Shown: positions 1-57,346, counted from the stretch's first letter. The stretch is DNA of 64,000 nt from Candidatus Poribacteria bacterium (GCA_022821495.1 JAJEDN010000078.1:30612-94611), one strand, 5' to 3'. Translations and numbers: made by a program. Notes: generated from the sequence alone by a model not told the origin.

Positions 1-40
1 CGTATTCCCCCCTGATAAGGGGGGGTAGGGGGGTTATCTT
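1..40. repeat. Partial/variant copy of dispersed R1 repeat (CCCCCTGATAAGGGGG...TAGGGGGTTATCTT)
   Basis: cgtattcccccctgataagggggggtaggggggttatctt matches the core and 3' flank of the repeats at 10423-10470 and 30231-30270; contains a C5/G5 hairpin. Confidence 0.6.
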
Positions 41-83
41 CGTAAAAGTGTTCATTTATTTTTCGATTTTACTATAACTTTCA

Positions 84-5338: not shown

Positions 5339-5385
5339 CATCGTCAAGACTTACGTATTTTTCCATGATAACTACGTATTATGCA

Positions 5386-5412
5386 CTGCAGGCGGGGTTT
5401 GAAACCCTGCAG
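5386..5412. repeat. Hairpin element ctgcaggcggggtttgaaaccctgcag downstream of mutS2 (member of GGGGTTTG[AT]AACCCC hairpin family)
   Basis: Inverted repeat CTGCAGG...CCTGCAG around GGGGTTTGAAACCC. No U-tract follows, so REP-like rather than a classic terminator. Confidence 0.5.
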
Positions 5413-5494
5413 AAATACCCAAGCAAAAACCCTGCGAGGGGGCTGCGTAAGTCCTAACAGTTAGAGAACTTTGACACAAAGAGGTAGATCCATT

Positions 5495-7342
5495 GTGAAC
5501 CGTTCTCCTAAAAGAAACCACGTGCCACGCGAAACGATCGACGAAATTCGGAGTCGAAGCGATATTGTTGAAGTGATCTCCGAATGCGGTATCGCGCTGC
5601 GTCCTGCTGGTCGCGATTACAAAGCGCTGTGTCCGTTTCATAATGAGAAAACACCTTCTTTTACCGTCTCGATCGAAAAGCAGATTTTTTACTGTTTCGG
5701 GTGCCAAACGGGTGGCAATGTTATCTCGTTTGTACAAAAGCATGAGGGTAAATCGTTCATAGAGACAATAGAGTGGTTAGCGGAACGCCAGAATATCATA
5801 CTCCCGACGCAGGACGGCCGCGAAAGTGCTGCACGCAAACGGTTCACAACTCTGGAAGAACTCAATCGCTTTGCAGTAGAACACTATCACCGTCAACTTC
5901 TCACCGAACGCGCGAGCGTACCTGCGATGCAATATCTCAAACGGCGCGGTGTCCAGCCGAAAACACTGCGATCCTTCCAACTCGGATATGCAACGTCTGG
6001 ACGACGGGAATTTGTGAAAATTGCGACGGCGAAAGGTTTTACGATCCAACAGTTGGTGGATGCCGGTTTAATTAAGGACGAGGACAAGGGACCTCAGGAT
6101 CGGTTTTGGAATAGAATCCTTTTTCCTATTCAGAATGAACGGGGTGTACCCGTCGGCTTTGGTGGACGTGCACTCTCTGAAGATCATCAACCTAAATACT
6201 TAAATTCGCCCGCAACGGACCTTTATGATAAAAGCAATATCCTTTACAATCTCGACAAAGCACGTCAATCCGTTTACAAACAACAGCGTGTATTGCTCGT
6301 AGAAGGTTATATGGATGTTTTGATGCTTTATCAGTCTGGGATTGAGAATGTTATAGCATCTTCAGGGACTTCTCTGAGTGAGAACCATGCGCGTTTATTA
6401 AAACGGTTTGTTCCGGAAGTCGTCATCGTTTATGATGGCGATGCTTCTGGTTTTCACGCAGCGCAACGTGGGTTACATCAACTCCTTTCCGAAGATTTAC
6501 GGGTGCGTGTCGCACTGCTGCCGTCAGGCGAAGACCCCGACTCGTTTACACGGCAACACGGGGTTGATGCGTTCACAGAACTCACGGACAAAGCAATAAA
6601 TCTCATAGAATTTCAGATTCAAGCTGCTATTCAAAATCAGGACCTTCACAAGGTTGAGGTAAAAGCGCAAATTGTTAAAGAGGTTACCGAGACACTCTTG
6701 AATCTCAAAAGTCGGGTTGAACGCAGCGAATACATCAAATATGCAGCGAAGGAACTCCATATTGATGAAACCGTCCTTTGGGATCAATTGAAAGACGCAG
6801 GATTCAAAGGGACATCAGTACCTCGTCAAACCAGTCGAGGCAAGGTCGCACCTCAGAAATTGTCCATACGCGCCCAAATTGAACGTCAACTTATTGAAGC
6901 CTTAATTCAGGATCCAACGTTACTTTCGTACGTCAAATCTCAATTTGACTATCAACATTTCACGGAACCACGCTTCGCCAAAATATCGAAATTGCTCTGG
7001 GAGGCGGATATGGATGATGAACGTATGGATATTCAAGCCGTGATCAATGATGACGGTGATGAGGCGTTAAATGCTTTCGTTTCAAGTGTGCTGCTGGGGA
7101 GAAAACCGCCCCCAAACTTACAAGCACGGGTTAATGGATGCCTGAAGAAATTGCGTAACTTCCATTTACAAGATCTTGAGCAGCGCGTCCGATCACACGC
7201 AGTCGCCGAAGGTGCCGATGACAGGGAAACCCTTAAACAGTTAGTGAAACTTTCAAATGAAAGACGTGCCTTACCGAGGCGCGAGGCAGAACGCACTCAC
7301 GATGAAAATTTAAACGAGGAAGGAGTTGATAATGGATTTTAA
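5495..7342 (+). CDS. dnaG: DNA primase DnaG
   Basis: GTG at 5495 with aagaggtag RBS (ORF is open from 5471). CHC2 zinc finger [11 protein letters not shown]...YCFGCQTGG. Toprim [10 protein letters not shown]...VYDGD. The stop overlaps the rpoD start. Confidence 0.85.
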
Positions 7343-9211: not shown

Positions 9212-10333
9212 ATGGAAAGTTGGGAAACCCCGCATTTCGTAGAGGCTGGGGTGAAAGCTATAGACTGCGACATCCATAACGAAGTCCCAACCTTGCAGAC
9301 ACTCTATCCATACATGTCTGATTTCTGGTGCGACTATTGTCAGAACTCAGGATTTAGAGGACCTGATGCCAACGATTATCCGAGAGGCGCGCCGCTGACG
9401 ACGCATCCAGACGCAATTTCCCCTTGGGACATCGATCTCGCACATATACGTGAACGGCTCCTTGAGGGATGGAACCTTGAATACGGTGTTCTCAATTGTT
9501 CCTATCGGGTCCAAAGCATTCACAACCCAGACCTTGCCGCCGCAATCGCGCAAGCCGTAAACGACTGGCAGATAGAACACTGGCTCGACCCAGAACCTCG
9601 ACTCCGTGCTTCTCTTGTGATACCCAGCCAGATGCCAGACCTCGCTGCAAAGGAAATAGAGCGGGTCGGCGCGCATCCAGGGTTCGTCCAAGTTGTCCTA
9701 CCTGTTAGGTCTCGGACACCTTATGGGAATCGATGCCACCATCCGATTTATGAGGCAGCAGTCCGGCATAATCTCGCTATAGGTATCCAGTACGGTGGCG
9801 CGCCCGGTACCCAACCTTCACCAACAGGTTGGCCATCGACGTTTTTAGAGGAGTATAGCGGCATGACGCAGGTCTTCCAAGCACAGGTGATTAGCCTCGT
9901 CGCGGAAGGGATTTTCGACCAGTTTCCTGAGCTTCGGGTTGTGCTCATTGAGAGTGGATTTACATGGCTGCCCGCAATGATGTGGCGAATTGACAAAGAG
10001 TGGCGCGGCCTCCGAAACAATACGCCGTGGGTCAAACGTCCGCCATCTGAGTACATGCGAGAACATATCCGGTTTACCTTACAACCGATTGATGCACCGC
10101 CGACACGCGAGCAGCTCCTTCAGATCATCGGGCAATTGGAATCCGATGAAATGTTAATGTTTTCAACGGATTACCCACATTGGCAGTTCAACACGCCGAA
10201 TGAGGCACTACCATCAGAGTTACCGGGTGCACTCGCCCGTAAAATTCTGCACGAGAACGCAAGTAACTTCTATCAGTTGGAACCTACGCATCCGACTTCA
10301 AAGTCCCCTGATAAGGGGGATTTAGGGGGTTAG
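9212..10333 (+). CDS. Amidohydrolase-2 family metal-dependent hydrolase (TIM barrel, ACMSD-like), paralog 1. Last ~11 codons lie inside an R1 repeat
   Basis: aaggagacc RBS. CDIHNEVP N-terminal metal-binding motif, HPGFVQVVLP, STDYPHWQF C-terminal motif. The stop codon falls inside repeat copy 10299-10333. Confidence 0.75.
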   Translation: MESWETPHFVEAGVKAIDCDIHNEVPTLQTLYPYMSDFWCDYCQNSGFRGPDANDYPRGAPLTTHPDAISPWDIDLAHIRERLLEGWNLEYGVLNCSYRVQSIHNPDLAAAIAQAVNDWQIEHWLDPEPRLRASLVIPSQMPDLAAKEIERVGAHPGFVQVVLPVRSRTPYGNRCHHPIYEAAVRHNLAIGIQYGGAPGTQPSPTGWPSTFLEEYSGMTQVFQAQVISLVAEGIFDQFPELRVVLIESGFTWLPAMMWRIDKEWRGLRNNTPWVKRPPSEYMREHIRFTLQPIDAPPTREQLLQIIGQLESDEMLMFSTDYPHWQFNTPNEALPSELPGALARKILHENASNFYQLEPTHPTSKSPDKGDLGG

Positions 10334-10555
10334 GGATTTAGGCTCAAAGTCCCCCTGATAAGGGGGATTTAGGGGGTTAGATTTTATAGCGTTCAGAAAA
10401 GTCCTCTGATGAGGTTCCACTTCAAAGTCCCCCTGATAAGGGGGATTTAGGGGGTTATCTTCAGGACTTAGGCCTCCGACTTCAAAGTCCCCCTGATAAG
10501 GGGGATTTAGGGGGTTAGATTTTATAGCGTTCAGAGATGCTATGGATTTCACAAG
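10299..10555. repeat. R1 repeat array: 4 copies of CAAAGTCCCCCTGATAAGGGGGATTTAGGGGGTTAG with interspersed attttatagcgttcaga units
   Basis: Copies at 10299-10333, 10345-10380, 10423-10458, 10483-10518. Spacing 46/78/60 bp is irregular and the spacers resemble each other. Confidence 0.85.
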
Positions 10556-30210: not shown

Positions 30211-30410
30211 TAGGACTTACGCCCGGTCTCTTAAAGTCCCCCTGATAAGGGGGATTTAGGGGGTTTCTTACATGCGATCTTAGGACTTACGCATGGTCTC
30301 TTAAAGTCCCCCGGATAAGGGGGATTTAGGGGGTTTCTTACATACGACGACTTACGCCCGGTCTCTTAAAGTCCCCCTGATAAGGGGGATTTAGGGGGTT
30401 TCTTACATGC
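30211..30410. repeat. R1 tandem array: 3 units (~66-70 bp) of taggacttacgcccggtctcttaaaGTCCCCCTGATAAGGGGGATTTAGGGGGtttcttacatgc
   Basis: Units at 30211-30280, 30281-30346, 30347-30410. The core is identical to the R1 copies at 10345 etc. Confidence 0.85.
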
Positions 30411-30443: not shown

Positions 30444-30677
30444 ATGAGACGCGCTATTGGAGACACCAACATGGACATTTCCCTCGAAAACGAAACACTG
30501 AATATCTATAGAAGAGAAATTGAGACACTTATTCAGCGCGATGAGAAGTATAAAGACTTAGGTCCCGCTGAACTTGAGGCAATTGTGCGCGCCTTTGAAT
30601 TTACTTTAACAAACGGTCGTGAGCAAGTCAGAGCGCAAATGCTTTACGACCTCGTTCATGAGAAAAGGGACGGCTAA
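30444..30677 (+). CDS. Small hypothetical protein (77 aa, or 68 aa from the ATG at 30471), translationally coupled to the downstream ATPase
   Basis: The TAA stop overlaps the downstream ATG in TAATATG. No recognisable domain. Confidence 0.45.
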   Translation: MRRAIGDTNMDISLENETLNIYRREIETLIQRDEKYKDLGPAELEAIVRAFEFTLTNGREQVRAQMLYDLVHEKRDG

Positions 30678-30678
30678 T

Positions 30679-32553
30679 ATGCTGCTTGAGCAGATCCGCC
30701 TGAGGGATTTCGGCTGTTTCCAACAGCAAAATTTTGATCTTCATGACGGGATCAACCTCATTTTCGGTCCCAATTTCAGTGGAAAAAGCACGCTTGTCAA
30801 CGCCATCTTCTTTACACTCACTGGGAAACCGATCGTCCCCCGCGTAGATCCTTCTGCCATAAAAAACGCTAAAGCCTATACCGGTACTGCTGGACTCCAA
30901 TTTCTTGTAGATGACGAGCGTTATCAGCTCCACCGAGCCACAGGAAAACGGATCCAACTCCGCACTGAAAAGAACGCTACGTGGCAGGTACTTTTCGATG
31001 AAAAGCGTGTCAAAGTAACAGAGTCGCTGTTGCAAGAACGATTTGGCGTTATGCACGAGCAACTCGCCCTCACGACATTCCTCCGCGAAGGTGAGATTTT
31101 TGAATTTCTCGCGCGTCAATCTGCCACTCGACGTGATATTCTCCATACGCTCCTCGGTATTGATAGATTAATAGAGGTCCGACAACGGTTCATTGAAGCG
31201 CGGCGTATCGCTAAACGTGAACAGGGCAGATTACGCTCTCACCAGAACAGTCTCCGGTTCAATGCACAGAATGTAAACGAAGCCGAGATCTCGCGAATTG
31301 AAGCGAAGTTGAAAGACTTGGAAGCCGCTTACGGTGCCCAAACAGGTGATACAGCACTCATCGCAGAGTGGGTGCAGCACCAGAACCGCTTACAAAAACA
31401 GTTGACTTCCCTCACGCAACAACAAGATGACGCCTTAAGCGGTTTCAACGATATTGCACATCTACGAGAGATGATCGCTACAATCGAAACGGCGATTCAA
31501 GAAGCCGCTGGATTAGAAGGCAAACGCGAGAAACTCATACAACAGATCGGTCGTTTGGAGTCTGAAATCGAAGCATTGACGAAGGTCTGTACCACCCTCC
31601 AAACACTGCTTGAGAGCGGCGAACAGCACTGTCCAACCTGTTCCCAAGAAGTTGAACGAGAGGTGGTGCAAAAGATTGTTGACGAGAAAGCGGAAGAGAA
31701 ATCACAGCGATGCACCGAACTTGATACCCATAAACAGTCGTTAGAGACAGAAACGACTAATTTAAAAAATCGGCAAGCACTTGAACAACGTCTCCAGACG
31801 TTGCAAACACTCTCAACACAGTATCAGCAGCGCGCCCAAGACCTTGACAAAACGCAAACTGAACTCGACGCACTCGCATCTCGGTTAAGTGAGAGAGGCA
31901 TCCAACAGAACGAACAGGTGCCTTCGGATACGCTCGCGACCTTGGACAAACCGAAGTTAAAAGCCCAAATTGATAGCGAGCGTGAGCGACTTGGCAAACT
32001 CAAGCAGGAAGAAGCCGTCCGTCTGGATAGACTCGGCGCGCTCCAACGCGTAAACAGAGACGCAGCGAAAGTTGAAAAGACACTCCTAAGTATAGAACTC
32101 GCCTGTGCTGGGATTGACAGAACCATTGAAGCACTCCAACGGCAAATCCTCAAGCCCGCTGAAGGGGAACTGCATCACTGGCTCGACAAGATGCAACTCT
32201 TTTCTACTTCTCGCGGGAGCGGGGCACAAACGCGCGTTGACTTACAACGCGAACACCTGCTCCCTTCCTTGAACATAGATGGTGCAGATCGGAGCCTGAT
32301 GTTACTCAGCGGTAGTGAAAAAATGTTCTTATATCTCTGCTTCAAAGTTGCCCTCGCCAAAGTTTTAGGCAACCCCGGCTTCTTTGTATTCGATGACCCG
32401 ACGCTCCATTTAGATGGCGAGCGAAAGGCGTTGATGGTAGATTTTATCCGTGAAGTCGCCGAAGAACACCAAGTCATCGTAACAAGTTATGATGAGGATG
32501 TGCGCGCGGGGCTCGAAAGCGCGCATCTCATTGAAATGACCAGAGAAGCATAG
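30679..32553 (+). CDS. Rad50/SbcC-like SMC-family ATPase with central CxxC zinc hook (624 aa)
   Basis: Walker A GPNFSGKSTLVNAIFFTLTG. Long coiled coil with HCPTCSQEV hook near the middle. ABC signature LSGSEKMFLYL and Walker B FFVFDDPTLHLD plus D-loop at the C-terminus. aaaaggga RBS. Confidence 0.8.
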   Translation: MLLEQIRLRDFGCFQQQNFDLHDGINLIFGPNFSGKSTLVNAIFFTLTGKPIVPRVDPSAIKNAKAYTGTAGLQFLVDDERYQLHRATGKRIQLRTEKNATWQVLFDEKRVKVTESLLQERFGVMHEQLALTTFLREGEIFEFLARQSATRRDILHTLLGIDRLIEVRQRFIEARRIAKREQGRLRSHQNSLRFNAQNVNEAEISRIEAKLKDLEAAYGAQTGDTALIAEWVQHQNRLQKQLTSLTQQQDDALSGFNDIAHLREMIATIETAIQEAAGLEGKREKLIQQIGRLESEIEALTKVCTTLQTLLESGEQHCPTCSQEVEREVVQKIVDEKAEEKSQRCTELDTHKQSLETETTNLKNRQALEQRLQTLQTLSTQYQQRAQDLDKTQTELDALASRLSERGIQQNEQVPSDTLATLDKPKLKAQIDSERERLGKLKQEEAVRLDRLGALQRVNRDAAKVEKTLLSIELACAGIDRTIEALQRQILKPAEGELHHWLDKMQLFSTSRGSGAQTRVDLQREHLLPSLNIDGADRSLMLLSGSEKMFLYLCFKVALAKVLGNPGFFVFDDPTLHLDGERKALMVDFIREVAEEHQVIVTSYDEDVRAGLESAHLIEMTREA

Positions 32554-32663
32554 AGAGATGGGAAGTTGACTTTCTGTGTCTTAATAGGACACGTTATTGG
32601 GCGCGGCAGGATGGGTCTGCTTATTCTTCACAACGCCCGTAAGTATGTGGTTGAAACGAAAAT

Positions 32664-32876
32664 TTGGAAGGCGATCTGCTTTACGAAGCCGGTAAAGAGC
32701 AACTCGCGAAGTATCTCAGCATAGAAAATGCGAACGAAGGCTATTACGTAGTCTTCGATCATCACAAAAATCCCGAACCTCAAGTAGAAACACAAACCTT
32801 ACAGGATTTAACGATTCGGAGCTACGTCATCCCCGTCCTACAAGAACGTCCTTCCACTTCTGCTCTTCAAGCTTAA
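32664..32876 (+). CDS. Orphan 70-aa ORF (TTG start), unknown. Possibly a gene fragment
   Basis: Preceded by an in-frame stop. No RBS or domain seen. Reported with low confidence. Confidence 0.2.
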   Translation: MEGDLLYEAGKEQLAKYLSIENANEGYYVVFDHHKNPEPQVETQTLQDLTIRSYVIPVLQERPSTSALQA

Positions 32877-32905: not shown

Positions 32906-35428
32906 ATGAAAACACTATATCTTACGATTACACTATTCATTTTTTTTACACTCGTTTTTTTACCATGCAGTTTCGCACAAGAACCAACATTTCTTGATCA
33001 TGGAGGTGGTGTGCGAGCGGTGGAATTTTCTCCTGTAGATGCATCACTTGTTGTGAGTGCTGGTGAGAGCAGTATTATCAAACTATGGAATCTGCAGACC
33101 AATACCGTGAAAACACTCGTCGGGCATACTGGTAGGGTCAATTCCGTTGCCTTTTCTCCTGATGGAGAGTTGCTTGCAAGTGTGAGCGATGATAAGACAA
33201 TCAAACTGTGGAATGTTCATGATCAACAAAACGTCATAACACTTCAAGATGAAACGAGGTTTCGCTCTGTTGACTTTTCTGCCAATGGACAACTCCTTGC
33301 CACAGGTGGTGGGATGCATGTAAAATTATGGGATGTTCCTAATCGGGTGGAGATTGCGCCACTTCAACACGACAAAGATGTAAGGGCAGTAGTTTTTTCA
33401 CCTGATGGTCAATTCCTTGCCGCTGGAGATGGTTCCGGAGATGGTCCCGGCACTGTGAAAGTCTGGAATGTTCAGGAACGGCAAGTTATCACTACACTAA
33501 GAGGGGATCCGAAAAATATCAAGACTGTCACATTTTCGCAGGATAACCGCTACTTGGCGAGTTCTGGGTGGGATGGACAACTCAAAGTGTGGAATGTCTC
33601 TGATTGGACGCTCTTTCGCACGATTCCGCATACAGGTTACTATGATATTTCATTTGCACCTGATGGGAAAATGCTCGTCAGTACAAATAACGGGTACGTG
33701 AGCCTTTGGTGGGTTGAGGATGGATCCAGGATTGTTCGGTTGAATGGACCTACCAATTGGATTCATCCTGTTGATTTTTCGCATGACGGCACCTCGCTTG
33801 CTGTTGGTGGTGAAGATGGGTTAGTGCGGATATGGCGTATTGATACGGGTAATGGTAATCAAAAGGGCGCTGTCCGTATTTTACATGTCAGCAATTATTT
33901 GGCACAGCTCCCCGATGTGAATACGGAGAACGGCATCCATATTCCTGATCCTGTTTCACCGCCACGTATTGTTAGCGACTATTTTCAACTTGATCCGTTT
34001 TATGAACAGTGGATTGATGTAGAAGGGTTGCCTGTCTTGGCATCGGTGAAGGTTAATCCGTATGCGCTAAAGGAAGCAGCATGGCTTATCAGGAAGATGG
34101 TCGGACATCGACCAGAAATACTGCAAGCAATGGCAGGGAAAAAGGCGAAATTATCTGTAATCGCACATAACGAGATTATAACAGAAATACCTGAGTATCG
34201 CAACGATGCACCTCCTGATTTTCTTATTTCCCGAGAACGTGGATGGGGCGGTAGTCGACAAGCAACAGTCAGTTCTTCTGAAGAAAACATCTTGAGTTAT
34301 GAAGGACCTCATAGCAGAAACTATAATGTGCTGATTCATGAATTTGCACATGGTATACACAGGTTTGGAGCGGATGCTGTCAATCCTTCGTTTGATGACG
34401 ATCTTCGCATTGTATATGAAGATGCAATGAGAAAAGGTTTATGGAAGGGAACTTATGCTTCTTCAGACAGAAAAGAATATTGGGCGGAAGGGACGCAAGC
34501 ATGGTTTAATCCAAAAGGGGATGGCAGCTTCAGGCATTTTGGCGATACGCGAAAAGCATTGAAAAATTATGATCCAGGACTTGCTGCGTTGCTTGCCGAA
34601 ATCTATGGCGATAACGCATGGCGGTATACGTCACCGCTCACACGAACCGATCAACCGCATCTTCAAGGTTATAATCCGCAAGAGTCACCTGTCTTTGAAG
34701 GGTGGAATGAGTTAGAAGCCTTATATCACCAACTCCGTGATCCCAACAGCGATGGGGGCGGTGAGTGGGTTAACTTAAAATCCTTTAATCCGAATCAGCT
34801 TTCAAGGTTGGTTGAGTCAAGTGTCGGTGGCAACAGGACTACAATGATTTTCGTCAATCTCAGTCAAGATGATGTTTTGACATACCGGGTTTCTTCTAAT
34901 GATGCGGAGGCACTTTGGACAAGAATTTATCCAGGACGTGCTCGCTGGACACATACTTCAGCGAATCAAATATGGCTTATTAAGGACACGCGTGGGAAAA
35001 ATATCGCGGTATTCAAAGCGAGTGAAAAAACAGGACGCGCCGTAATTGGCGTTAAAGATGGGCAGGTATTGCCTGTTACCCTGTCCCGTTTCCGTGCCGA
35101 ACTCACCGATGCAGGTGTTATTCTTAGATGGATAACCGAATCAGAATTGAACAACGCGGGCTTCAATATCCTCCGCAGTGAAGCAAAGAATGGTGAGTTC
35201 AAGGTCGTTAATCCCCAACTCATCCAAGGCGCAGGCACAACAAGTGAACGGCACACTTACACATGGAAAGATACCACTGCCAAACCCAATGTCGTCTATT
35301 ACTATCGGATAGAGGACATCTCACATGCCGGTATTTGCAAGCAGTTAGCAACCGTCCGACTGAGAGGATATGTCTCCGCAGCGGGTAAACTTACGACGAA
35401 GTGGGGCGATTTGAAAAGGCAAGAGTAA
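32906..35428 (+). CDS. Secreted WD40 beta-propeller fused to a putative HExxH zinc-metallopeptidase-like domain and a C-terminal beta-rich domain
   Basis: Signal peptide LYLTITLFIFFTLVFLPCSFA. Seven WD40-like blades (VKLWNV, WD motifs). NVLIHEFAHGIH HExxH motif. C-terminal GTTSE...YYYRIEDISHAG domain. Confidence 0.75.
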   Translation: MKTLYLTITLFIFFTLVFLPCSFAQEPTFLDHGGGVRAVEFSPVDASLVVSAGESSIIKLWNLQTNTVKTLVGHTGRVNSVAFSPDGELLASVSDDKTIKLWNVHDQQNVITLQDETRFRSVDFSANGQLLATGGGMHVKLWDVPNRVEIAPLQHDKDVRAVVFSPDGQFLAAGDGSGDGPGTVKVWNVQERQVITTLRGDPKNIKTVTFSQDNRYLASSGWDGQLKVWNVSDWTLFRTIPHTGYYDISFAPDGKMLVSTNNGYVSLWWVEDGSRIVRLNGPTNWIHPVDFSHDGTSLAVGGEDGLVRIWRIDTGNGNQKGAVRILHVSNYLAQLPDVNTENGIHIPDPVSPPRIVSDYFQLDPFYEQWIDVEGLPVLASVKVNPYALKEAAWLIRKMVGHRPEILQAMAGKKAKLSVIAHNEIITEIPEYRNDAPPDFLISRERGWGGSRQATVSSSEENILSYEGPHSRNYNVLIHEFAHGIHRFGADAVNPSFDDDLRIVYEDAMRKGLWKGTYASSDRKEYWAEGTQAWFNPKGDGSFRHFGDTRKALKNYDPGLAALLAEIYGDNAWRYTSPLTRTDQPHLQGYNPQESPVFEGWNELEALYHQLRDPNSDGGGEWVNLKSFNPNQLSRLVESSVGGNRTTMIFVNLSQDDVLTYRVSSNDAEALWTRIYPGRARWTHTSANQIWLIKDTRGKNIAVFKASEKTGRAVIGVKDGQVLPVTLSRFRAELTDAGVILRWITESELNNAGFNILRSEAKNGEFKVVNPQLIQGAGTTSERHTYTWKDTTAKPNVVYYYRIEDISHAGICKQLATVRLRGYVSAAGKLTTKWGDLKRQE
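35363..35428. repeat. Left copy of a ~66-bp direct repeat flanking the Rpn gene (3' end of the WD40 gene)
   Basis: gagaggatatgtctccgcagcgggtaaacttacgacgaagtggggcgatttgaaaaggcaagagtaa vs 36414-36480, ~85% identical. Confidence 0.8.
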
Positions 35429-35532
35429 GTATCGCCAACCAAGCATTTTCTGTGCCTCTCCGTTTTCTTTAAAATTGGGTATAGACTCAAAAAATCTTGA
35501 CTTTTCTCCATAAAGGCAGATATAATACTTAC

Positions 35533-36408
35533 ATGCCATACTACGATGAAATCTTCAAGCATGTTACCGGGGAGTTCCCGCATGCGTTGGCAGTGTTAGC
35601 ACTCAAAGCACCAGAGGTGGAAGTCGGAGATCGTCTGGCGACAGAACACACCACGGTTCGGATACACCACAGCGATATGACGTTTCATATCCGATTGCCC
35701 GACGAGGAAGCGATCCTACATATAGAGGCACAAACCGACGATAGCACCTATAAACCGATGTCGCTACGAATGCTGGCATATTCGAGTTTCCTATCTCTTG
35801 AGCATGAGAAAAACGTCTATTCAACGGTGTTGTATTTCCGCCCCCCGGCGGGACAAAACGACCCCGGTTTCTATAGGTATGGCAACGAGCAACGTGGTGG
35901 CGGGTGGTTTCAGTATAATGTCGTCCGGATATATGAGTTGGAGGGTGAAGCGTTTTTGGATCCTAAAGCCGTTGGTTTACTGCCATTCACAGCTTTGATG
36001 AAACATCCGCCGGACATGACACCTCAAGCCTGGATTGAGAAGTGTATAGAGACGACCCAGGCAACCGATGTTGACAGAGAGATGCGGGCAACGCTTTTAT
36101 TTGCGCTTTCGCTTTTCGGAAGTTTAGCACATCCGTCTGAGTTTTTTCAGGACCCTATATTGGAGGGAATCATGCAAGAATCTCCTTTTTACGAACGCGT
36201 GATCCAGCGCGGCATAGAACAAGGGGCACGCCAAATGAGTATTGAAAGCACCTTGGCTACTCTTAACCAGCGCTTTCCAAACGCCGATGTCAATGCCCTC
36301 AAGCCGATCCTTGAAGCTGTTGACGATCTCAACAGGCTCCGGGAGTTGAACCTAAACGCTTCCGTAGCAGAAAGTTTCAACGTTTTCCGAGAAGACTTAG
36401 ACGCGTAA
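35533..36408 (+). mobile_element. Rpn-family (YhgA-like, PD-(D/E)XK) recombination-promoting nuclease / putative transposase gene
   Basis: N-terminal DEIFKHVTGEFPHALAVLAL, core HIEAQTDD...RMLAY, C-terminal SPFYERVIQRGIEQGARQ half-repeat typical of the family. ATG at 35533 (ORF open from the TTG at 35497). Flanked by a 66-bp direct repeat. Confidence 0.7.
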
Positions 36409-36413
36409 TCTAT

Positions 36414-36480
36414 GAGAGGTTATGTGTCCATAGCTGGTAAACTTACGACGAAGTGGGGCGATTTGAAACTGCAGGAGTAA
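36414..36480. repeat. Right copy of the direct repeat. Encodes an alternative WD40-protein tail (RGYVSIAGKLTTKWGDLKLQE-stop)
   Basis: gagaggttatgtgtccatagctggtaaacttacgacgaagtggggcgatttgaaactgcaggagtaa. Confidence 0.8.
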
Positions 36481-36546
36481 TGGGAGTGTTTCATTATTCA
36501 TGGTGGAAACTTCGTATCGTCGAAAATTCAGTTGCCGGAAACGCTG

Positions 36547-36590
36547 CATTGTAGCATAGGCTGTTAGCCTGTGCCTCCGTGGGCATAGGA
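36547..36590. repeat. R5 dispersed element, copy 2
   Basis: gcattgtagcataggctgttagcctgtgcctccgtgggcatagg. See 11725-11760. Confidence 0.5.
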
Positions 36591-36619
36591 AACCGTTGGT
36601 CTCCTGTGCCTCTAATTAC

Positions 36620-38002
36620 CTAAAACCGCTTAAGATAAATATCGCCGTTGTCTTCCTGTGTGTTACTCCAAACAACCACCCACCCCCCTTGCCCGACAGA
36701 TACCACAAACGGTGGATAGTGCTCACCTTGGCTCGTAGAGATAGCCACCCCGTCTTTATCCCACAACAGTTTACCTTCTAAATCAATAAGCTGCCCATAG
36801 ATAGCATCGCTGCTCTCCTCACCGAAGTCTTCTCGGTAATCCAACCACGCTACAAAAAATTGACTGTTCTCGGTTTTAACGATAAACGGCTTATCCTGAT
36901 GTCCGCCTGCTGTACAAAGCGGGATACCATCCTGTTCCCAGACCGGCGTACCATCTGCACCGATGTGCTGCATATACAGGTCAGAATAGATATCGCGTTC
37001 ATCTCGCCACACTGCGATGAATCCACCGTTGCCGTCCCCGGTGACCGAGGCGTGCTTCTGAATACCTGAAGCCGTACAGATTGGAACACCCGTCCCTTCC
37101 CATAACTTGCTACCGTCCGCGGCGATCCGTTGTGCATAGAGTTGATCGTTAATAAAATTTTCATAAACCTGCCATAGGACAATAATGCCACCTTCACCAT
37201 CAACAATCACGCGAGGTTCACCTTGCATGCCATTTGCTGGGGAGATGAGAAGCGGTGTATCCCACAACGGTTTCGCGTCTAAACGCAACCGATACGCCAT
37301 GATATGCCACGCATCATAGCCGATAACATCCCACCAAACCACATAGAACCCGCCCAAGCCATCGGCGACCAGAATCGGATCGCTCTGTAGCGATTCCGAT
37401 GGGAAAACAGGAATACCGTTGGATTCCCACATCGGTTCACCTTCCGCAGTAATCCGTTGGATATAGAGGTCTTGGAATTCAGAACTCCGGCGTTCATCTT
37501 CCCAGACGCAGATAGCACCCCCTTCGCCATCGCTCATAAGTGCCTGTGTGGACTGATCTGCTGTATTTATACAAACCGGAATACCATCTGTTTGCCATAG
37601 AATTTTACCATCAAGATCTACTGCTTGAGCATAGATGTCCCAATTGCTTCTGTCGCGTCTGTCGTTCCATACAACAATCGCGTGCTTATCGTGTCGAACC
37701 ATCCGTAAACGGCGTTGATTTCTATCTGCTTGGCATATGACTACACCATTCTCTTCCCAACGTGCTTTTCCAGTGCTATCAACGCGCTGCGCGTAAACGT
37801 CCCAATCTTTCCCGGTACGGTAATCCTCCCACATAATGACAACACCTGCCTCACCATCGTTGACCACCCATGGCAGGAATTGCCCATCTATAGCCGTCGA
37901 AACAGGGATTTCAGATGCTGCGGTACTATAGAACGTGCAGAAAGATACAAGCAAGAGCGCGAACCGGTTGATTAATCTGTGAAAAGTGTTTTTGGCGTCC
38001 AT
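36620..38002 (-). CDS. Secreted tandem-repeat (beta-propeller-like) protein, ~8 repeats of a ~55-aa unit with a W..DG.P.C signature
   Basis: Signal peptide LLLVSFCTFYSTAASE. Repeats such as LWQTDGIPVC, MWESNGIPVF, LWEGTGVPIC, VWEQDGIPLC. Start at 38002 (ORF open to 38047). Confidence 0.6.
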   Translation of the reverse strand: MDAKNTFHRLINRFALLLVSFCTFYSTAASEIPVSTAIDGQFLPWVVNDGEAGVVIMWEDYRTGKDWDVYAQRVDSTGKARWEENGVVICQADRNQRRLRMVRHDKHAIVVWNDRRDRSNWDIYAQAVDLDGKILWQTDGIPVCINTADQSTQALMSDGEGGAICVWEDERRSSEFQDLYIQRITAEGEPMWESNGIPVFPSESLQSDPILVADGLGGFYVVWWDVIGYDAWHIMAYRLRLDAKPLWDTPLLISPANGMQGEPRVIVDGEGGIIVLWQVYENFINDQLYAQRIAADGSKLWEGTGVPICTASGIQKHASVTGDGNGGFIAVWRDERDIYSDLYMQHIGADGTPVWEQDGIPLCTAGGHQDKPFIVKTENSQFFVAWLDYREDFGEESSDAIYGQLIDLEGKLLWDKDGVAISTSQGEHYPPFVVSVGQGGWVVVWSNTQEDNGDIYLKRF

Positions 38003-38469
38003 AAATTGACTAAAGTTCCTTTTGTATACAGATCGAGAGCGTCCCACTGTTGAATCGGAAGTTCAATCTGCGCCAGTGCCGCTGTCGGCATCTGTTCTAT
38101 TTCTCCCGTCAAATGATTCACGAGTTGTTCCATCGTTGGATTGTGCCCAACGACCATGACGCGTTGATATTTATCCGACAGTGCTTGTAATGTTTTGAAA
38201 AAGACACCGGGGACGGTATCATAAAACGCCTCTAACTTTTTCACTTTTCCGGTATAACCGCAGGATTTTGCCACTTTATTCGCTGTTTTCCGAGCACGTT
38301 TTGCCGACGAGGTAAGAATCCGGTCAGGGATCAACCCTTCTTGGCGTAGATGTTTCCCCATCCGTGGCGCATCCCGTTTACCTCGCGAATTGAGCGGACG
38401 ATCATAATCAGAGAGTTCGGGGTGATTCCAACTGGATTTCGCGTGTCGTAGAATAAGAACGGTTTTCAT
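37972..38469 (-). CDS. sixA: Phosphohistidine phosphatase SixA (histidine phosphatase family)
   Basis: VLILRHAKS catalytic RHG-type motif, VMVVGHNPT. Confidence 0.75.
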   Translation of the reverse strand: MKTVLILRHAKSSWNHPELSDYDRPLNSRGKRDAPRMGKHLRQEGLIPDRILTSSAKRARKTANKVAKSCGYTGKVKKLEAFYDTVPGVFFKTLQALSDKYQRVMVVGHNPTMEQLVNHLTGEIEQMPTAALAQIELPIQQWDALDLYTKGTLVNLWTPKTLFTD

Positions 38470-44751: not shown

Positions 44752-44985
44752 AGACGTGCTACGCGCGTTGTCTAAAGCGCGTAAGCCCAACCAACGGGCG
44801 GGCTGGATATACGGAGATGCACTTTATTTCCGAAACCGTCCTGACTGAACCGCAAGGAACATTAAAAGTATGCTGCGCGCGTTGTCCAAAGCGCGTAAGC
44901 CCAACCAACGGGCGGGCTGGATATACGGAGATGCACTTTATTTCCGAAACCGACCTGACCGAACCGCAAGGAACATTAAAAGTAT
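44752..44985. repeat. 117-bp near-perfect tandem duplication (2 units) covering the RBS and start codon of the first SurA-like gene
   Basis: Units 44752-44868 and 44869-44985 differ at ~5 positions. Each contains GCGCGCGTTGTC[CT]AAAGCGCG and GCCCAACCAACGGGCGGGC hairpins and ends with aaggaacattaaaagtATG. Confidence 0.85.
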
Positions 44986-45952
44986 GAAAAAAGCGATTAC
45001 TCTTTTTTTAATTGTCGCTGTGACTTGCCTATTAACTTGGAAATTCGTTCAATCTGATAGCCACGAGCAGCCCGCGCCTGCTATGGACGAAAGCCAGGTA
45101 ATTTTAGCCGAGTATAAATGGAACGGCGAGTCACATCAAATCTCGTTGGCGGACCTGAACGCCGCAATCGCAGAATTACCTGTTTACCGCCAGCAGAATT
45201 ATGAAGCACGCGCCGACAAAGCCGAGTATCTTGAAGAATTGATAGACGAACGGCTCAAACTGCTTCGCGCAACTGACGATGGGTTTGATAAATCCCTTGA
45301 GCACCTCAAGAAACTTGAAGACTATACGCACCAGCTCATGGTTGAAAAATTAACTGAAGCAGAAGTTGATGCCAAGGTCGTCTACACAGATGAGGATCTT
45401 ATGGCACATTATCAGGCGAACCTGAGTGAATACATTGAGGACGCAAAAGTCCGAGCGATCTGTATCACGCTTGATGATGAAGACCTCGCTAACGAAACAC
45501 TTGATGCTATTAAAGCAGGGAAAGACATTGTTGAGATGGCGAAGGAACTCTCTGAAGCAGGGAAACTCGCTAACGGACCCGGCACTAACCAAGATGATCC
45601 AGGCAATACCTACCTCTTCACAAAAGCCGCCTCTGCACGCTGGACGGAATTCATTGAAACTGTTTTTGACCAAGAAGTCGGCGAAATGACGGATGCTGTC
45701 TTTGAAACCGATGTCAACGACGAAACCTTCTATCTCATCTTCCGTAAGGAGGAGCATCAACCCGAACGACAGCAGGAATTCGATGAAGTTAAAGACGATA
45801 TTCAAAGAACCGTTGAACGCGCAAAGAAACGTGAGCGCATCAATGAATGGGTTACCGAAATCACTGAAAAAGGCAAACTGAAAACCTATCCTGAGAATAT
45901 TCCGGAGCCGCCGAAACCCGAAGAAGCGGAGACCGAAGAATCAGAACAGTAG
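44984..45952 (+). CDS. SurA-N-domain / degenerate parvulin chaperone-like protein (paralog A)
   Basis: Signal/TM ITLFLIVAVTCLLTW. SurA-like N-terminal helical region. Weak PPIase-like C-terminus. Acidic tail. Confidence 0.55.
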   Translation: MKKAITLFLIVAVTCLLTWKFVQSDSHEQPAPAMDESQVILAEYKWNGESHQISLADLNAAIAELPVYRQQNYEARADKAEYLEELIDERLKLLRATDDGFDKSLEHLKKLEDYTHQLMVEKLTEAEVDAKVVYTDEDLMAHYQANLSEYIEDAKVRAICITLDDEDLANETLDAIKAGKDIVEMAKELSEAGKLANGPGTNQDDPGNTYLFTKAASARWTEFIETVFDQEVGEMTDAVFETDVNDETFYLIFRKEEHQPERQQEFDEVKDDIQRTVERAKKRERINEWVTEITEKGKLKTYPENIPEPPKPEEAETEESEQ

Positions 45953-54974: not shown

Positions 54975-56147
54975 ATGAAAACAAATATTTTCCTAACCCT
55001 AATCGCAATCTTAATTATATCTCTTGCAGGATGCGAACGCATACAACAAATCGTTGCCCGTGATGCACCCACATCGGACACGACATCTACCATCAAAATC
55101 GGCGTGATCCAACCCTCGGGACTTGCCCCCAACTTCACCAGAGGCGCGGAACTCGCCAGAACCCAAATTAACGATGCTGGCGGTCTACTCGGCATGCAAG
55201 TCGAATTTATTGTCATGGACAATCAAGGCGATCGCGAATTCCCAAACGCAGCCGAAAGCGTCCGTATTGCTAAAGTTCTCATTGAAAAGATAAACGTTGT
55301 CGCAATCTTAGGTCCCCTACTCTCAACGAATTCCATGCAAGTTGGACCCGTTGTTTCTGAGCTTCGGCGACCCATAATTACCGGTTCGTCCGGTGAGAAG
55401 GTAACCTCGACAGGCGAATTCGTCTTTATTACGGTTGTTCCGTCCTCAGTTCAAGGTATGACAACGGCACAATTCGCATTAGATCCCACCGAACTGAACG
55501 CCAAAACCGCCGCGACAATCCGTCAAGCTGGAGATGTGTACTCCGGTGCTGTCGCTGACGCTTTTGAGGCGAATTTTCAGGAACTCGGTGGAAAACTCGT
55601 CGCAAGTGAAGTCTATCAACACGGCGATAGAGATTTTGCCGCGCAGTTGACAAAAATTAAAGCCGCAGCCCCGGATGTTTTCTTAATAGCCGGTTTTAAC
55701 CCAGAGATCCCTTTATTGGCAGCACAGGCGAGGGATATAGGGATTACGGCAACCTTTATCGGTACCAATGGTTGGGATGAGTCTGACAAACTTCTTGGCA
55801 CTTTAGATGACAACGCACCTCTCGAAGGAGCTTACTTCACCAGAGGTTTCAATGTCGAGTCCGTCAGTGCTCCTGCCTTTGTTGCGGCGTACACAGCGAT
55901 GTATATCGAACCGCCGGATGGTCCCGCCGCATGGGGCTACGATGCGATGTCGCTACTCGCACTCGCCATCAAAAACGCTGGAACGCTTGATCCTGATGCC
56001 ATTCGCGATACCTTGGCAAACACAACCGACTACCAAGGCGCGACCGCTATCTCCCATTTTGATGAGAATCGCCATCCCATCAAATACCATGAACTTTACA
56101 CAATCCGCAACGGGCAGATAGAACTCTACAAGGTTGTAAGTCCATAA
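54975..56147 (+). CDS. ABC-transporter substrate-binding lipoprotein (LivJ/K branched-chain amino-acid-binding family), paralog 1
   Basis: Lipobox LAGCE. Type-I periplasmic binding fold signatures. Confidence 0.75.
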   Translation: MKTNIFLTLIAILIISLAGCERIQQIVARDAPTSDTTSTIKIGVIQPSGLAPNFTRGAELARTQINDAGGLLGMQVEFIVMDNQGDREFPNAAESVRIAKVLIEKINVVAILGPLLSTNSMQVGPVVSELRRPIITGSSGEKVTSTGEFVFITVVPSSVQGMTTAQFALDPTELNAKTAATIRQAGDVYSGAVADAFEANFQELGGKLVASEVYQHGDRDFAAQLTKIKAAAPDVFLIAGFNPEIPLLAAQARDIGITATFIGTNGWDESDKLLGTLDDNAPLEGAYFTRGFNVESVSAPAFVAAYTAMYIEPPDGPAAWGYDAMSLLALAIKNAGTLDPDAIRDTLANTTDYQGATAISHFDENRHPIKYHELYTIRNGQIELYKVVSP

Positions 56148-56173: not shown

Positions 56174-57346
56174 GTGAAACTAAAAATTTTCTTAACCCTC
56201 ATTACAATTATAGTTATATCCTTTACCGGATGCGAACGCGTAAAACAGGTGATTGCACCTGATGCTCCCGCTCCCGATGCCGTTTCTACTGTTAAAATCG
56301 GTGTGATTCAACCCTCGGGATACTACACCGGGTTTGCCCAAGGTGCCGAACTCGCTCGCACCCAAATCAATGCGCGCGGTGGTGTGCTCGGCAAGCAAAT
56401 TGAATTTATCGTCAGGGATAACCAAGGAACGCGTTCCGTCCCGGATGCAGCCGAAAGTGTTCGTATTGCAAAAACACTCATTGAGCAGGAGGAGGTTGTT
56501 GCAATTCTCGGTCCCATTTTCTCTAACAATTCCATAGAGGTCGGACCTGTTGTTCAGCAACTTCAGCGTCCGATCATTCCCGGCTCCGCTGGCGATCATG
56601 TGACCGCTGCAGGGGATTTTGTCTTTCTCGTCGTCCCTACGACATCAGCCCATGGCGCGGTAATAGCACAATTCGCAAGCGATCCGTCCGAACTCGGCGC
56701 AACAACCGCCGCGACGATCCGTCAAACTGAGAGTGCTTACACAGAGAGCCTAACCCAAGCGTTTGAAGAGAATTTTCGGGAACTCGGTGGCAAAATCGTT
56801 GCCAGTGAAGTTTATCAAGTTGGCGATAACACCTTTGATGCACAACTGACAAACATCAAAGCCGCAGCACCCGATGTGATATATATTGCAGGTATTATTC
56901 CAGATATTCACTTCGTGATGGCGCGAGCCAGAGAAATCGGTATTCAAGCCACTTTTCTTGGGCCCGGAAGTTGGGATGAGGTTCAGAAGCTTTTCAGTAC
57001 CTTAAATGATAACGCACCGTTAGAGGGGGCTTATTTTACCGCAGATTTTAGTCCAGAGGTACCGAGTGCCGAACCCTTTGTTCAAGCTTATACGGCGCTG
57101 TCTATGACACCGCCAGATAGCGCAGCTGCTTCAGGTTATGATGCCATGTTACTCTTAGCGACTGCAATTGAAGAGGCGCAGACGCTCAATCCTGCTGCCG
57201 TTCGCGATGCCCTTTCAAATATCACCAACCACAAAGGCGCGACGTTTATTTCCCATTACAGTGTCAATCGCCACCCGATTAAAAGCGTTGTCATTAACAC
57301 AATCCGCAATGGGCAGATCGAACTCTACAAGGTTGTGAACCCATAA
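56174..57346 (+). CDS. ABC-transporter substrate-binding lipoprotein (LivJ/K family), paralog 2
   Basis: aggagg RBS then GTG. Lipobox FTGCE. ~55% identical to paralog 1 by eye. Confidence 0.75.

Follow-up and report, generated by a model that had tools for sequence, protein, structure and literature searches.

The genome of a Candidatus Poribacteria bacterium carries, in the 64,000-nt stretch analysed here (GCA_022821495.1 JAJEDN010000078.1:30612-94611; the window, with positions counted from its first letter), a small cassette with a single gene of the Rpn (YhgA-like) type. The cassette lies just behind the gene for a secreted WD40 protein, and the last part of that gene is present twice, once on each side of the cassette. 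Because this layout recurs independently at other genes, it is probably the scar of how rpn genes get inserted. As to the kind of scar, we put about as much trust as doubt in the reading that insertion was coupled to duplication of the adjacent host sequence, as would be left by a break-and-repair event and not by canonical transposition.

The host gene end is duplicated around the cassette

A repeat search of the window recovered a direct repeat of 68 nt with 88% identity and a spacing of 1052 (Table 1), slightly longer and better matched than the 66 bp at ~85% proposed in an earlier sequence-only reading of this stretch. This pair is the sole diverged direct repeat of 50-300 nt with a spacing of 0.3-3 kb in the window. 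Its 33-nt core, GGTAAACTTACGACGAAGTGGGGCGATTTGAAA, is identical in both copies and absent from the rest of the window (0 matches expected by chance, 100 shuffles). Between the copies lie 984 bp (35429-36412; 985 bp in the earlier estimate) with one open reading frame (ORF) only, of 291 amino acids (aa), and its promoter, so that the repeat does bracket a single Rpn-type gene cassette.

Both window copies encode a derived KWGDLK where orthologs have RWADLK. Copy 2 therefore derives, as had been supposed, from the end of its own host gene and from no distant paralog. Copy 2 translates to MRGYVSIAGKLTTKWGDLKLQE-stop, with no gene body joined to it. The sister species (locus L006) carries both tail copies as well, but a 1-nt deletion has shifted the frame of its copy 2, and in a third species (L008) copy 2 is nearly erased, with only ...GATTTGAAACTaCAGGtGTAA left. 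Copy 2 is a decaying, functionless remnant: the in-frame alternative tail noticed in the sequence-only reading is there, and its function is not. If copy 2 were kept for cassette excision, or for a C-terminal switch between KRQE and KLQE, the identical core would be long enough for homologous recombination, the concerted evolution of the copies shows recombination between them, and the frame of copy 2 is still open in the window. These points notwithstanding, copy 2 is not conserved as coding sequence in the two other species, and no excised hybrid-tail allele was found among related contigs; we consider such a role very improbable.

The two copies resemble each other in different ways along their length. 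Over the first ~50 nt both carry the states of their species, GGT..ACG for the window and GGA..ACA for L006, whereas the final 12 nt sort by position across three lineages, with AGGCAAGAGTAA in copy 1, CTGCAGGAGTAA in copy 2 of the window, and CTGCAGGAATAG and CTACAGGTGTAA in copy 2 of L006 and L008, respectively, with two substitutions each. From this mosaic of species-specific and position-specific states we infer gene conversion between old copies.

Similarity between the repeat copies probably runs past the stop codon by about 44 nt. Window positions 20-43 after the copy 1 stop align with L006 positions 21-44 after copy 2, at a score that 0/500 shuffles reach, and an intact hairpin 3' of the upstream gene at L012, another lineage, aligns with the hairpin after copy 2 (offsets 11-42 versus 11-43). 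The sister-locus element is terminator-like, GGCGAGG-N8-CCTCGCC followed by a T-run, and its 3' half, CTGTGCCTC, occurs three times in the window, always at the rpn locus (0.29 expected; 0/100 shuffles reach 3). The spacer after copy 1 probably belongs to the duplicated unit. Because post-stop terminator sequence aligns at equal offset after both copies, the original unit probably comprised ~112 nt, that is, the 68-nt tail with its stop codon plus a terminator. The unit ends at the left limit of cassette homology (~35475). An Rfam scan of 34500-37500 gave no match. In the window a hairpin, GTAGCATAGGCTGTTAGCCTGTGCC, borders the island on its right (36551-36575); in L006 (2558-2590) and L008 (2230-2262) it lies on the left, just 3' of an AAA_35 gene.

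The layout recurs at other genes

At a second locus, L016, a 1584-bp segment with a gene of the same family, antisense to the host, lies behind the stop codon of a DHDPS-family gene. Beyond the insert, ~77 nt from the end of DHDPS appear a second time with their stop codon, and native spacer and a GFO/IDH/MocA gene come next. In the orthologous empty sites L096-L098, DHDPS, 60 nt and then GFO follow one another with no insert. The two L016 copies share lineage-specific states that are absent from the empty site and are therefore a self-duplication; by these comparisons, the same architecture arose independently at L016.

The third case concerns an 851-aa gene. Relative to the empty junction in L003, locus L005 shows a 178-bp duplication of the end of this gene around an 808-bp filler (4933-5740; AT-rich, 38% GC) in which we found no recognisable gene and no Rpn or Pfam similarity. 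In L004 a bona fide PF04754 gene occupies this junction, and the right edge there retains the last ~20 nt of the 178-bp remnant, including a derived 5-nt insertion common with L005. The architecture thus probably arose independently here too. This case was met by chance, when orthologous WD40 loci were compared as the sequence-only reading had proposed; L003-L005 lie in a different genomic context and were ruled out as empty sites for the window. The targets duplicated at the three loci have no sequence in common, and the repeats are unrelated host sequences.

These loci bear on the possibility that copy 2 was left by a deleted downstream paralog, or by tandem duplication and deletion, with an unconnected rpn insertion. 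Tandem tail-bearing paralogs do exist (a WD40 gene then a leucine-rich repeat (LRR) gene in L003), rpn arrays arise by tandem duplication (PMC10400941), and the island that holds the cassette is highly dynamic. Such a history, however, requires a deletion that ended 4 nt after the rpn stop and started exactly where similarity to copy 1 begins, and the same coincidence at L016, whose empty site has a single DHDPS gene and then GFO, and at the 851-aa gene, which is single-copy in L003. Behind copy 2, moreover, stands the terminator that also follows copy 1, at an equal offset. The in-situ duplication of the end of a single-copy metabolic gene at L016 argues against a deleted-paralog remnant, and we judge this history distinctly unlikely.

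A scan of species-representative genomes yielded 76 family loci, all in Poribacteria. Flanking direct repeats of at least 80 bits accompany 7/44 single-copy loci, versus 1/44 and 0/44 control positions. In the flanks of other family copies, which the sequence-only reading had suggested aligning, the repeats are heterogeneous (insertion sequence (IS) fragments, hairpin elements, array remnants and host-gene ends), and most loci have none. Several candidates were rejected as clean cases. The L027 repeat is an internal fragment of a paralogous gene and not a 3' end; at L057, with a repeat of 242 nt, the 'host gene' is a DDE transposase and the case is IS-related; the repeats of 440-660 nt at L079, L053, L044 and L072 are whole IS1595-like fragments and represent segmental or tandem duplication; those at L018, L029, L041 and L082 are hairpin elements resembling miniature inverted-repeat transposable elements (MITEs); and those at L045, L047 and L050 are remnants of the 3' end of a neighbouring family copy. 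The L018 element is a 77-nt palindrome of MITE-like or repetitive extragenic palindromic (REP)-like type (CTCTTGTGGGAGGGGTTT...AACCCCTCCCACAA) found on both sides of a tandem family gene pair (2138-2213 and 5131-5207).

One Poribacteria genome (OZ242325.1, L043-L081) has >25 copies of the family that are 97-99% identical in nucleotide sequence, a recent burst. Many form tandem arrays (period ~1.3 kb) and others are dispersed, and IS1595-like transposase fragments often lie beside them. Such a multi-copy family, with a minimal conserved unit of promoter and ORF and direct repeats beside some copies, could suggest that the Rpn-like protein is a transposase and the repeat its target-site duplication. 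The cassette edges, however, lack terminal inverted repeats, and outside promoter and ORF no ends are conserved; the duplications have no fixed length (68-112, ~77 and 178 nt); many copies lack a duplication, expansion being mostly via tandem arrays; and, according to the literature, no autonomous transposase of this fold is known, nor is there evidence that rpn genes transpose autonomously (PMC10400941). Classical transposition is largely refuted already and hardly credible. The proposal that the repeat is an insertion footprint is partly upheld by the independent recurrences, but not as a classical target-site duplication, because inverted repeats, shared ends and a fixed length are all missing and most copies show no duplication at all.

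The cassette encodes a divergent Rpn-family protein

The label Rpn/YhgA-like came from the sequence-only reading, and direct searches with family models do not reach it. TIGR01784 matches the 291-aa ORF below its cut-off (E=0.017; 15 bits against 52.1), no Pfam model matches the ORF even at E<=10, a sequence search of the PDB gave no significant match, and PF04754 matches just 3/37 close homologs (E~0.01). Membership was therefore built from motifs, profile bridging and the C-terminal domain. Across relatives as distant as ~25% identity, residue D48 never varies and E65 and Q67 are conserved at >=90%; 115/120 homologs have the D...hhhExQ motif. These positions match the catalytic residues D63/E82/Q84 of E. 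coli RpnA (PMC5350276). An exhaustive profile search found 2975 relatives, and TIGR01784 matches 16/40 aligned sequences, nearly all distant full-length relatives (best E=5.5e-14; PF04754, 2/40). The C-terminal domain is homologous to that of the L004 protein (blastp 43% identity, E=1e-12; hhalign 97.4%), which is a bona fide PF04754 member (104.6 bits). An AlphaFold2 model of the ORF is confident, with a predicted local distance difference test (pLDDT) of 85.7, and a fold search gave weak, non-significant matches, mostly to PD-(D/E)XK restriction enzymes. By this chain of homology the ORF is a divergent member of the Rpn family (RpnL/RpnS-like), and its product is a predicted PD-(D/E)XK RpnL-like nuclease. 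Its scores far below the curated TIGR01784 and PF04754 cut-offs set it apart from Rpn of E. coli and mark a divergent subfamily, expanded in Poribacteria.

Family-wide homology begins only ~43-60 nt before the ATG and goes no further than the ORF; there are several alternative breakpoints. It takes in a sigma-70-type promoter whose -10 box ends 6 nt before the ATG, an arrangement conserved across the family (window 35497-35535) that suggests a leaderless RpnL mRNA, whereas an internal start in the same ORF has a strong Shine-Dalgarno (SD) sequence. At 69/69 family sites GGAGG stands 5-9 nt before an invariant internal ATG, and the SD-forming Glu211 codon is GAG in 69/69, versus 58.5% elsewhere in the same ORFs. 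This start is a candidate for production of a small RpnS-like protein. In E. coli, Rpn (YhgA-like) proteins are RpnL/RpnS gene-within-gene toxin-antitoxin antiphage nucleases (Kingston et al. 2017, PMC5350276; Zhong et al. 2023, PMC10400941), and RpnS has four-residue repeats, hypervariable in number, that begin 8-20 residues after the internal Met (PMC10400941). The window ORF has one RGIE/QGIE four-residue unit (36208-36219); among homologs the units form runs of 1-10, and most runs start at an offset of 10-17 residues from the internal Met (mode 12-13). Stand-alone ORFs of the C-terminal domain, each with GGAGG and ATG, stand in tandem 3' of some family genes (L029 5006-5787; L034 3312-5558, with up to five; L041 5017-5310; L082 3592-3897 and 6223-6549), and small downstream homologs have also been described for rpn genes (PMC10400941).

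The upstream gene is a recent arrival in a variable island

The genes most similar to the window ORF (93%, 89% and 88% identity) are its positional orthologs. Downstream of them lie the same genes as in the window, which encode a 475-aa protein, His_Phos_1, DUF3108 and Mfd. The upstream gene, by contrast, differs in every lineage among the window, L006, L008/L011 and L012 (Table 1). The WD40 protein has orthologs at ~70% identity and LRR-bodied paralogs, all ending in RGxVSAxGKLTTxWADLKxQx; a second protein of the window ends in KLVTTWGDIK. WD40, LRR and other secreted Poribacteria proteins have in common a conserved C-terminal domain whose end is GKLTTxW(A/G)xLK with a few residues more (window 35387-35416 and 2795-2824; P0122-P0150). 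No Pfam model covers this tail domain, which is a candidate sorting signal. The same gene families also use a second tail type, ...FTATRKMLIRK, which resembles signals of the type IX secretion system (T9SS).

A contig of the same species, L002, is 97% identical to the window from 35069 on and has an LRR body 5' of this junction (L002 1-266; L006 4296-4595), where it matches the LRR gene of L006 at 91%. By these alignments, ~35069 is a recombination junction at which WD40 and LRR bodies have been exchanged within one species, with the conserved C-terminal domain acting as the recombination handle for body swaps. The swap is recent, since L002, at 97% identity, bears the LRR body. The WD40 gene had been taken for the original host of the insertion; the comparison with L002 contradicts this and identifies it as a recent arrival, a body recombined onto an older structure of C-terminal domain, tail and rpn gene. 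On another contig, L001, the first 49 nt differ from the window up to the copy 1 TAA; they lie at the contig end and were not used as evidence.

Recombination of this kind raises the possibility that the cassette came on DNA with a related gene's 3' end, so that the two copies would be the tails of donor and recipient, joined by homologous recombination in the C-terminal domain or tail with an illegitimate joint on the other side, or by a single crossover with a circle. The exchange at 35069 demonstrates that recombination in the C-terminal domain reshuffles this locus, the tail is a motif conserved family-wide, the family member at L048 stands 64 nt behind a different tail-bearing gene, and an identical core with diverged arms is the pattern expected of a crossover. 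Set against this, both window copies share the derived KWGDLK, and later gene conversion explains the central identity equally well. L016 duplicates a DHDPS end with shared lineage-specific states and has no plausible paralogous donor, so that an in-situ mechanism is needed at least once and a donor-carried tail cannot be the general explanation. For the window we hold a donor-carried tail to be unlikely.

A Lamassu-like ATPase block on one side and the conserved 475-aa gene on the other enclose the locus, which is a variable island. The SMC-like protein on the left (window 30619-32553, + strand) has a full-length match to LmuB of Lamassu (E=1.5e-35), and the small ORF that follows it (32664-32876) is the C-terminal remnant of an AAA_35 ATPase, with the last ~70-100 codons left. 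More distant genomes have the empty state. At L086 the SMC-like gene is followed by the AAA_35 ATPase and, convergent with it, by the 475-aa gene, their stop codons 54 bp apart; at L087 the SMC-like gene abuts the 475-aa gene directly. The sequence-only reading had held that loci with both repeat copies and no rpn gene would imply a duplication unrelated to the insertion; L086 and L087, which have no cassette, carry neither tail copy, so that this objection does not arise from them. The AAA_35 ATPase of L086 (6495-8102) carries a D...ExK-like motif at its C-terminus. The locus looks like a defence-island hot spot, and the LmuB-like neighbour is in keeping with the published finding that rpn genes are enriched in such islands (PMC10400941).

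How the duplication may have arisen

On the break-and-repair reading, a self-contained cassette (35475-36412) would have been placed just behind the terminator of a secreted-protein gene, duplicating ~112 nt of host sequence immediately 5' of the insertion point. Copy 1 would keep the host gene intact, and copy 2, functionless behind the cassette, would decay. The duplication might originate from break repair with widely offset nicks and fill-in, or from a switch of template during replication, in which the cassette was copied in and synthesis was taken up again 5' of the departure point; either origin would give a target duplication of variable length without transposon ends. Gene conversion between the copies may later have produced the identical 33-nt core and the species-specific states, and the upstream body would have been replaced repeatedly by recombination within the conserved C-terminal domain. 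Only insertions that left the host gene intact would survive selection, and because the displaced copy decays, most old insertions would show nothing.

Several observations weigh against this reading. The window's own continuation of copy 2 past the stop codon is disrupted, so that the 112-nt estimate leans on sister loci, and the same type of terminator hairpin also occurs elsewhere, behind the upstream gene of L008. Two clean events and one probable event stand among about 45 distinct loci, most of which have no such repeat; many flanking repeats elsewhere are of other kinds (hairpin or MITE-like elements, IS fragments and tandem-array remnants). The family gene at L048, in spite of its position behind a tail-bearing gene, shows no repeat. 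The L005 insert has no rpn gene, which makes the rpn link of the third event indirect. The break-and-repair step itself we infer from the anatomy of the loci, and a published survey of other phyla reports no target duplications at rpn genes (PMC10400941).

More tentatively, and with doubt outweighing belief, the loci might point to a general route, in which break-and-fill or template-switch insertion leaves variable target duplications of ~70-180 bp and may be initiated by widely offset nicks of the Rpn nuclease itself, the Poribacteria loci being its first recognisable footprints.

Table 1 Features of the rpn locus in the window and the upstream gene in related lineages
Feature	Position	Strand	Basis or remark
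Host gene, 840-aa secreted WD40 / metallopeptidase-like protein	32906..35428	+	ORF; WD40 Pfam matches; tail ...RGYVSAAGKLTTKWGDLKRQE-stop
C-terminal domain module shared with LRR-bodied allele	35069..35428	+	L006 and L002 homology starts at 35069
Repeat copy 1	35361..35428	+	Functional final 68 nt of host gene, including stop codon
Post-stop spacer, decayed terminator-like hairpin and T-run (CTGTGCCTCTCCGTTTTCTTTAAAA)	35429..35474	+	Same-offset alignment with L006/L008 after copy 2 and with intact L012 hairpin
Minimal rpn-type cassette (promoter, ORF and 4 nt)	35475..36412	+	L008 homology begins at ~35475
Sigma-70-type promoter, TTGACT-18-TATAAT	35497..35526	+	11/12 matches; kept in all positional orthologs
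RpnL-like ORF, 291 aa	35533..36408	+	D48 (35674-35676), E65 (35725-35727), Q67 (35731-35733)
Candidate gene-within-gene, 78-aa RpnS-like C-terminal protein	36162..36408	+	SD GGAGGG (36162-36167), ATG 36172 (Met214)
Repeat copy 2	36413..36480	+	Displaced non-coding remnant of host gene's 3' end
Hairpin GTAGCATAGGCTGTTAGCCTGTGCC and two more CTGTGCCTC motifs	36551..36612	+	Terminator leftovers after copy 2 and extra sequence specific to the window lineage
Island left border, AAA_35 ATPase C-terminal remnant	32566..32876	+	Gene intact in L086 and L006
Island right border, conserved 475-aa gene	36620..38047	-	Convergent with cassette
Upstream gene, window			WD40 + C-terminal domain + tail
Upstream gene, L006			LRR + C-terminal domain + tail
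Upstream gene, L008/L011			WD40 + dockerin-like end, no tail
Upstream gene, L012			Gene with T9SS-type tail

Other repeats in the window

Elsewhere in the window, a 70-nt unit containing a hairpin, CCCCCTGATAAGGGGG, forms three tandem repeats with 90% matches (30211-30410). Related copies of this repeat lie 20 kb away (10282-10535) and in L006 (7893-7935), and they form a REP-like intergenic repeat family. A 116-nt tandem duplication (44757-44986; 96.5% identity) lies at the start of a Rotamase_2 gene region, and the same-species contig L001 differs in copy arrangement there. Two adjacent tandem paralogous genes (54975-56147 and 56174-57346) encode 390 aa each and share 69% nucleotide identity.

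Comparison with known systems

Integrative elements insert into the 3' ends of tRNA, tmRNA and protein genes and bring a replacement end, leaving attL/attR direct repeats. The rpn locus resembles their products in that the host gene is intact, its 3' end is present twice, the gene-end repeats bracket the insert and the displaced copy abuts native downstream DNA. It differs in that the insert, of ~1 kb and a single gene, has no integrase, and the host genes and repeats differ per locus: the insert encodes only the Rpn-like ORF and no site-specific recombinase, and no common att core was found at the three loci. A homing endonuclease gene would be expected at a conserved recognition site; no single such site was found, and family members occupy many unrelated sites.

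Tn7 inserts downstream of glmS by way of defined ends and a multi-protein transposase, with a 5-bp duplication. Here, too, insertion is just behind a gene's 3' end or terminator, the gene stays functional and a PD-(D/E)XK nuclease, in our case a predicted one, is involved; the TnsA subunit of Tn7 has this fold (PMC10400941). Unlike Tn7, the rpn cassette has no defined ends, no multi-protein transposase and no 5-bp duplication.

Long duplications of variable length are produced by staggered breaks or template switching, as in retroelements of the long interspersed nuclear element (LINE) type and in rearrangements of the fork stalling and template switching (FoSTeS) and microhomology-mediated break-induced replication (MMBIR) type. 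The Poribacteria insertions share with these the variable-length target duplication, the lack of element-encoded ends and the variable insert boundaries, but the rpn cassette has no reverse transcriptase, and the mechanism proposed here is read from anatomy only. To our knowledge, insertions with long, variable duplications have not been described for bacterial rpn genes.

Genes of the rpn type occur in dozens of phyla, have been labelled 'putative transposases' and are, as recent work has shown, defence nucleases of the toxin-antitoxin kind. Pairs of a filled site, with its duplicated host end, and an empty one offer concrete junctions that bear on how these genes move, and they lead to the testable prediction that insertion would proceed by way of offset breaks or a template switch and that selection would retain only the events that preserve the host gene. 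The same locus illustrates how, in a sponge symbiont and beside a defence island, a conserved C-terminal domain of sorting type serves as a handle for swapping eukaryote-like repeat bodies (WD40, LRR).

Rpn of E. coli remains the closest comparison. Beyond the catalytic residues, the likenesses include a variable C-terminal helical domain with an internal SD and ATG and a variable number of four-residue repeats; tandem arrays, variable region ends, no inverted repeats and stand-alone small homologs; and a defence-island setting, here with an LmuB-like ATPase as neighbour. The variable breakpoints and missing inverted repeats of the window family agree with the published description of rpn genes, in which inverted repeats, target duplications and autonomous mobility are all lacking (PMC10400941). 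On target duplications the two part ways: the published survey has none, whereas two to three independent insertions in Poribacteria keep long duplications of the host 3' end.

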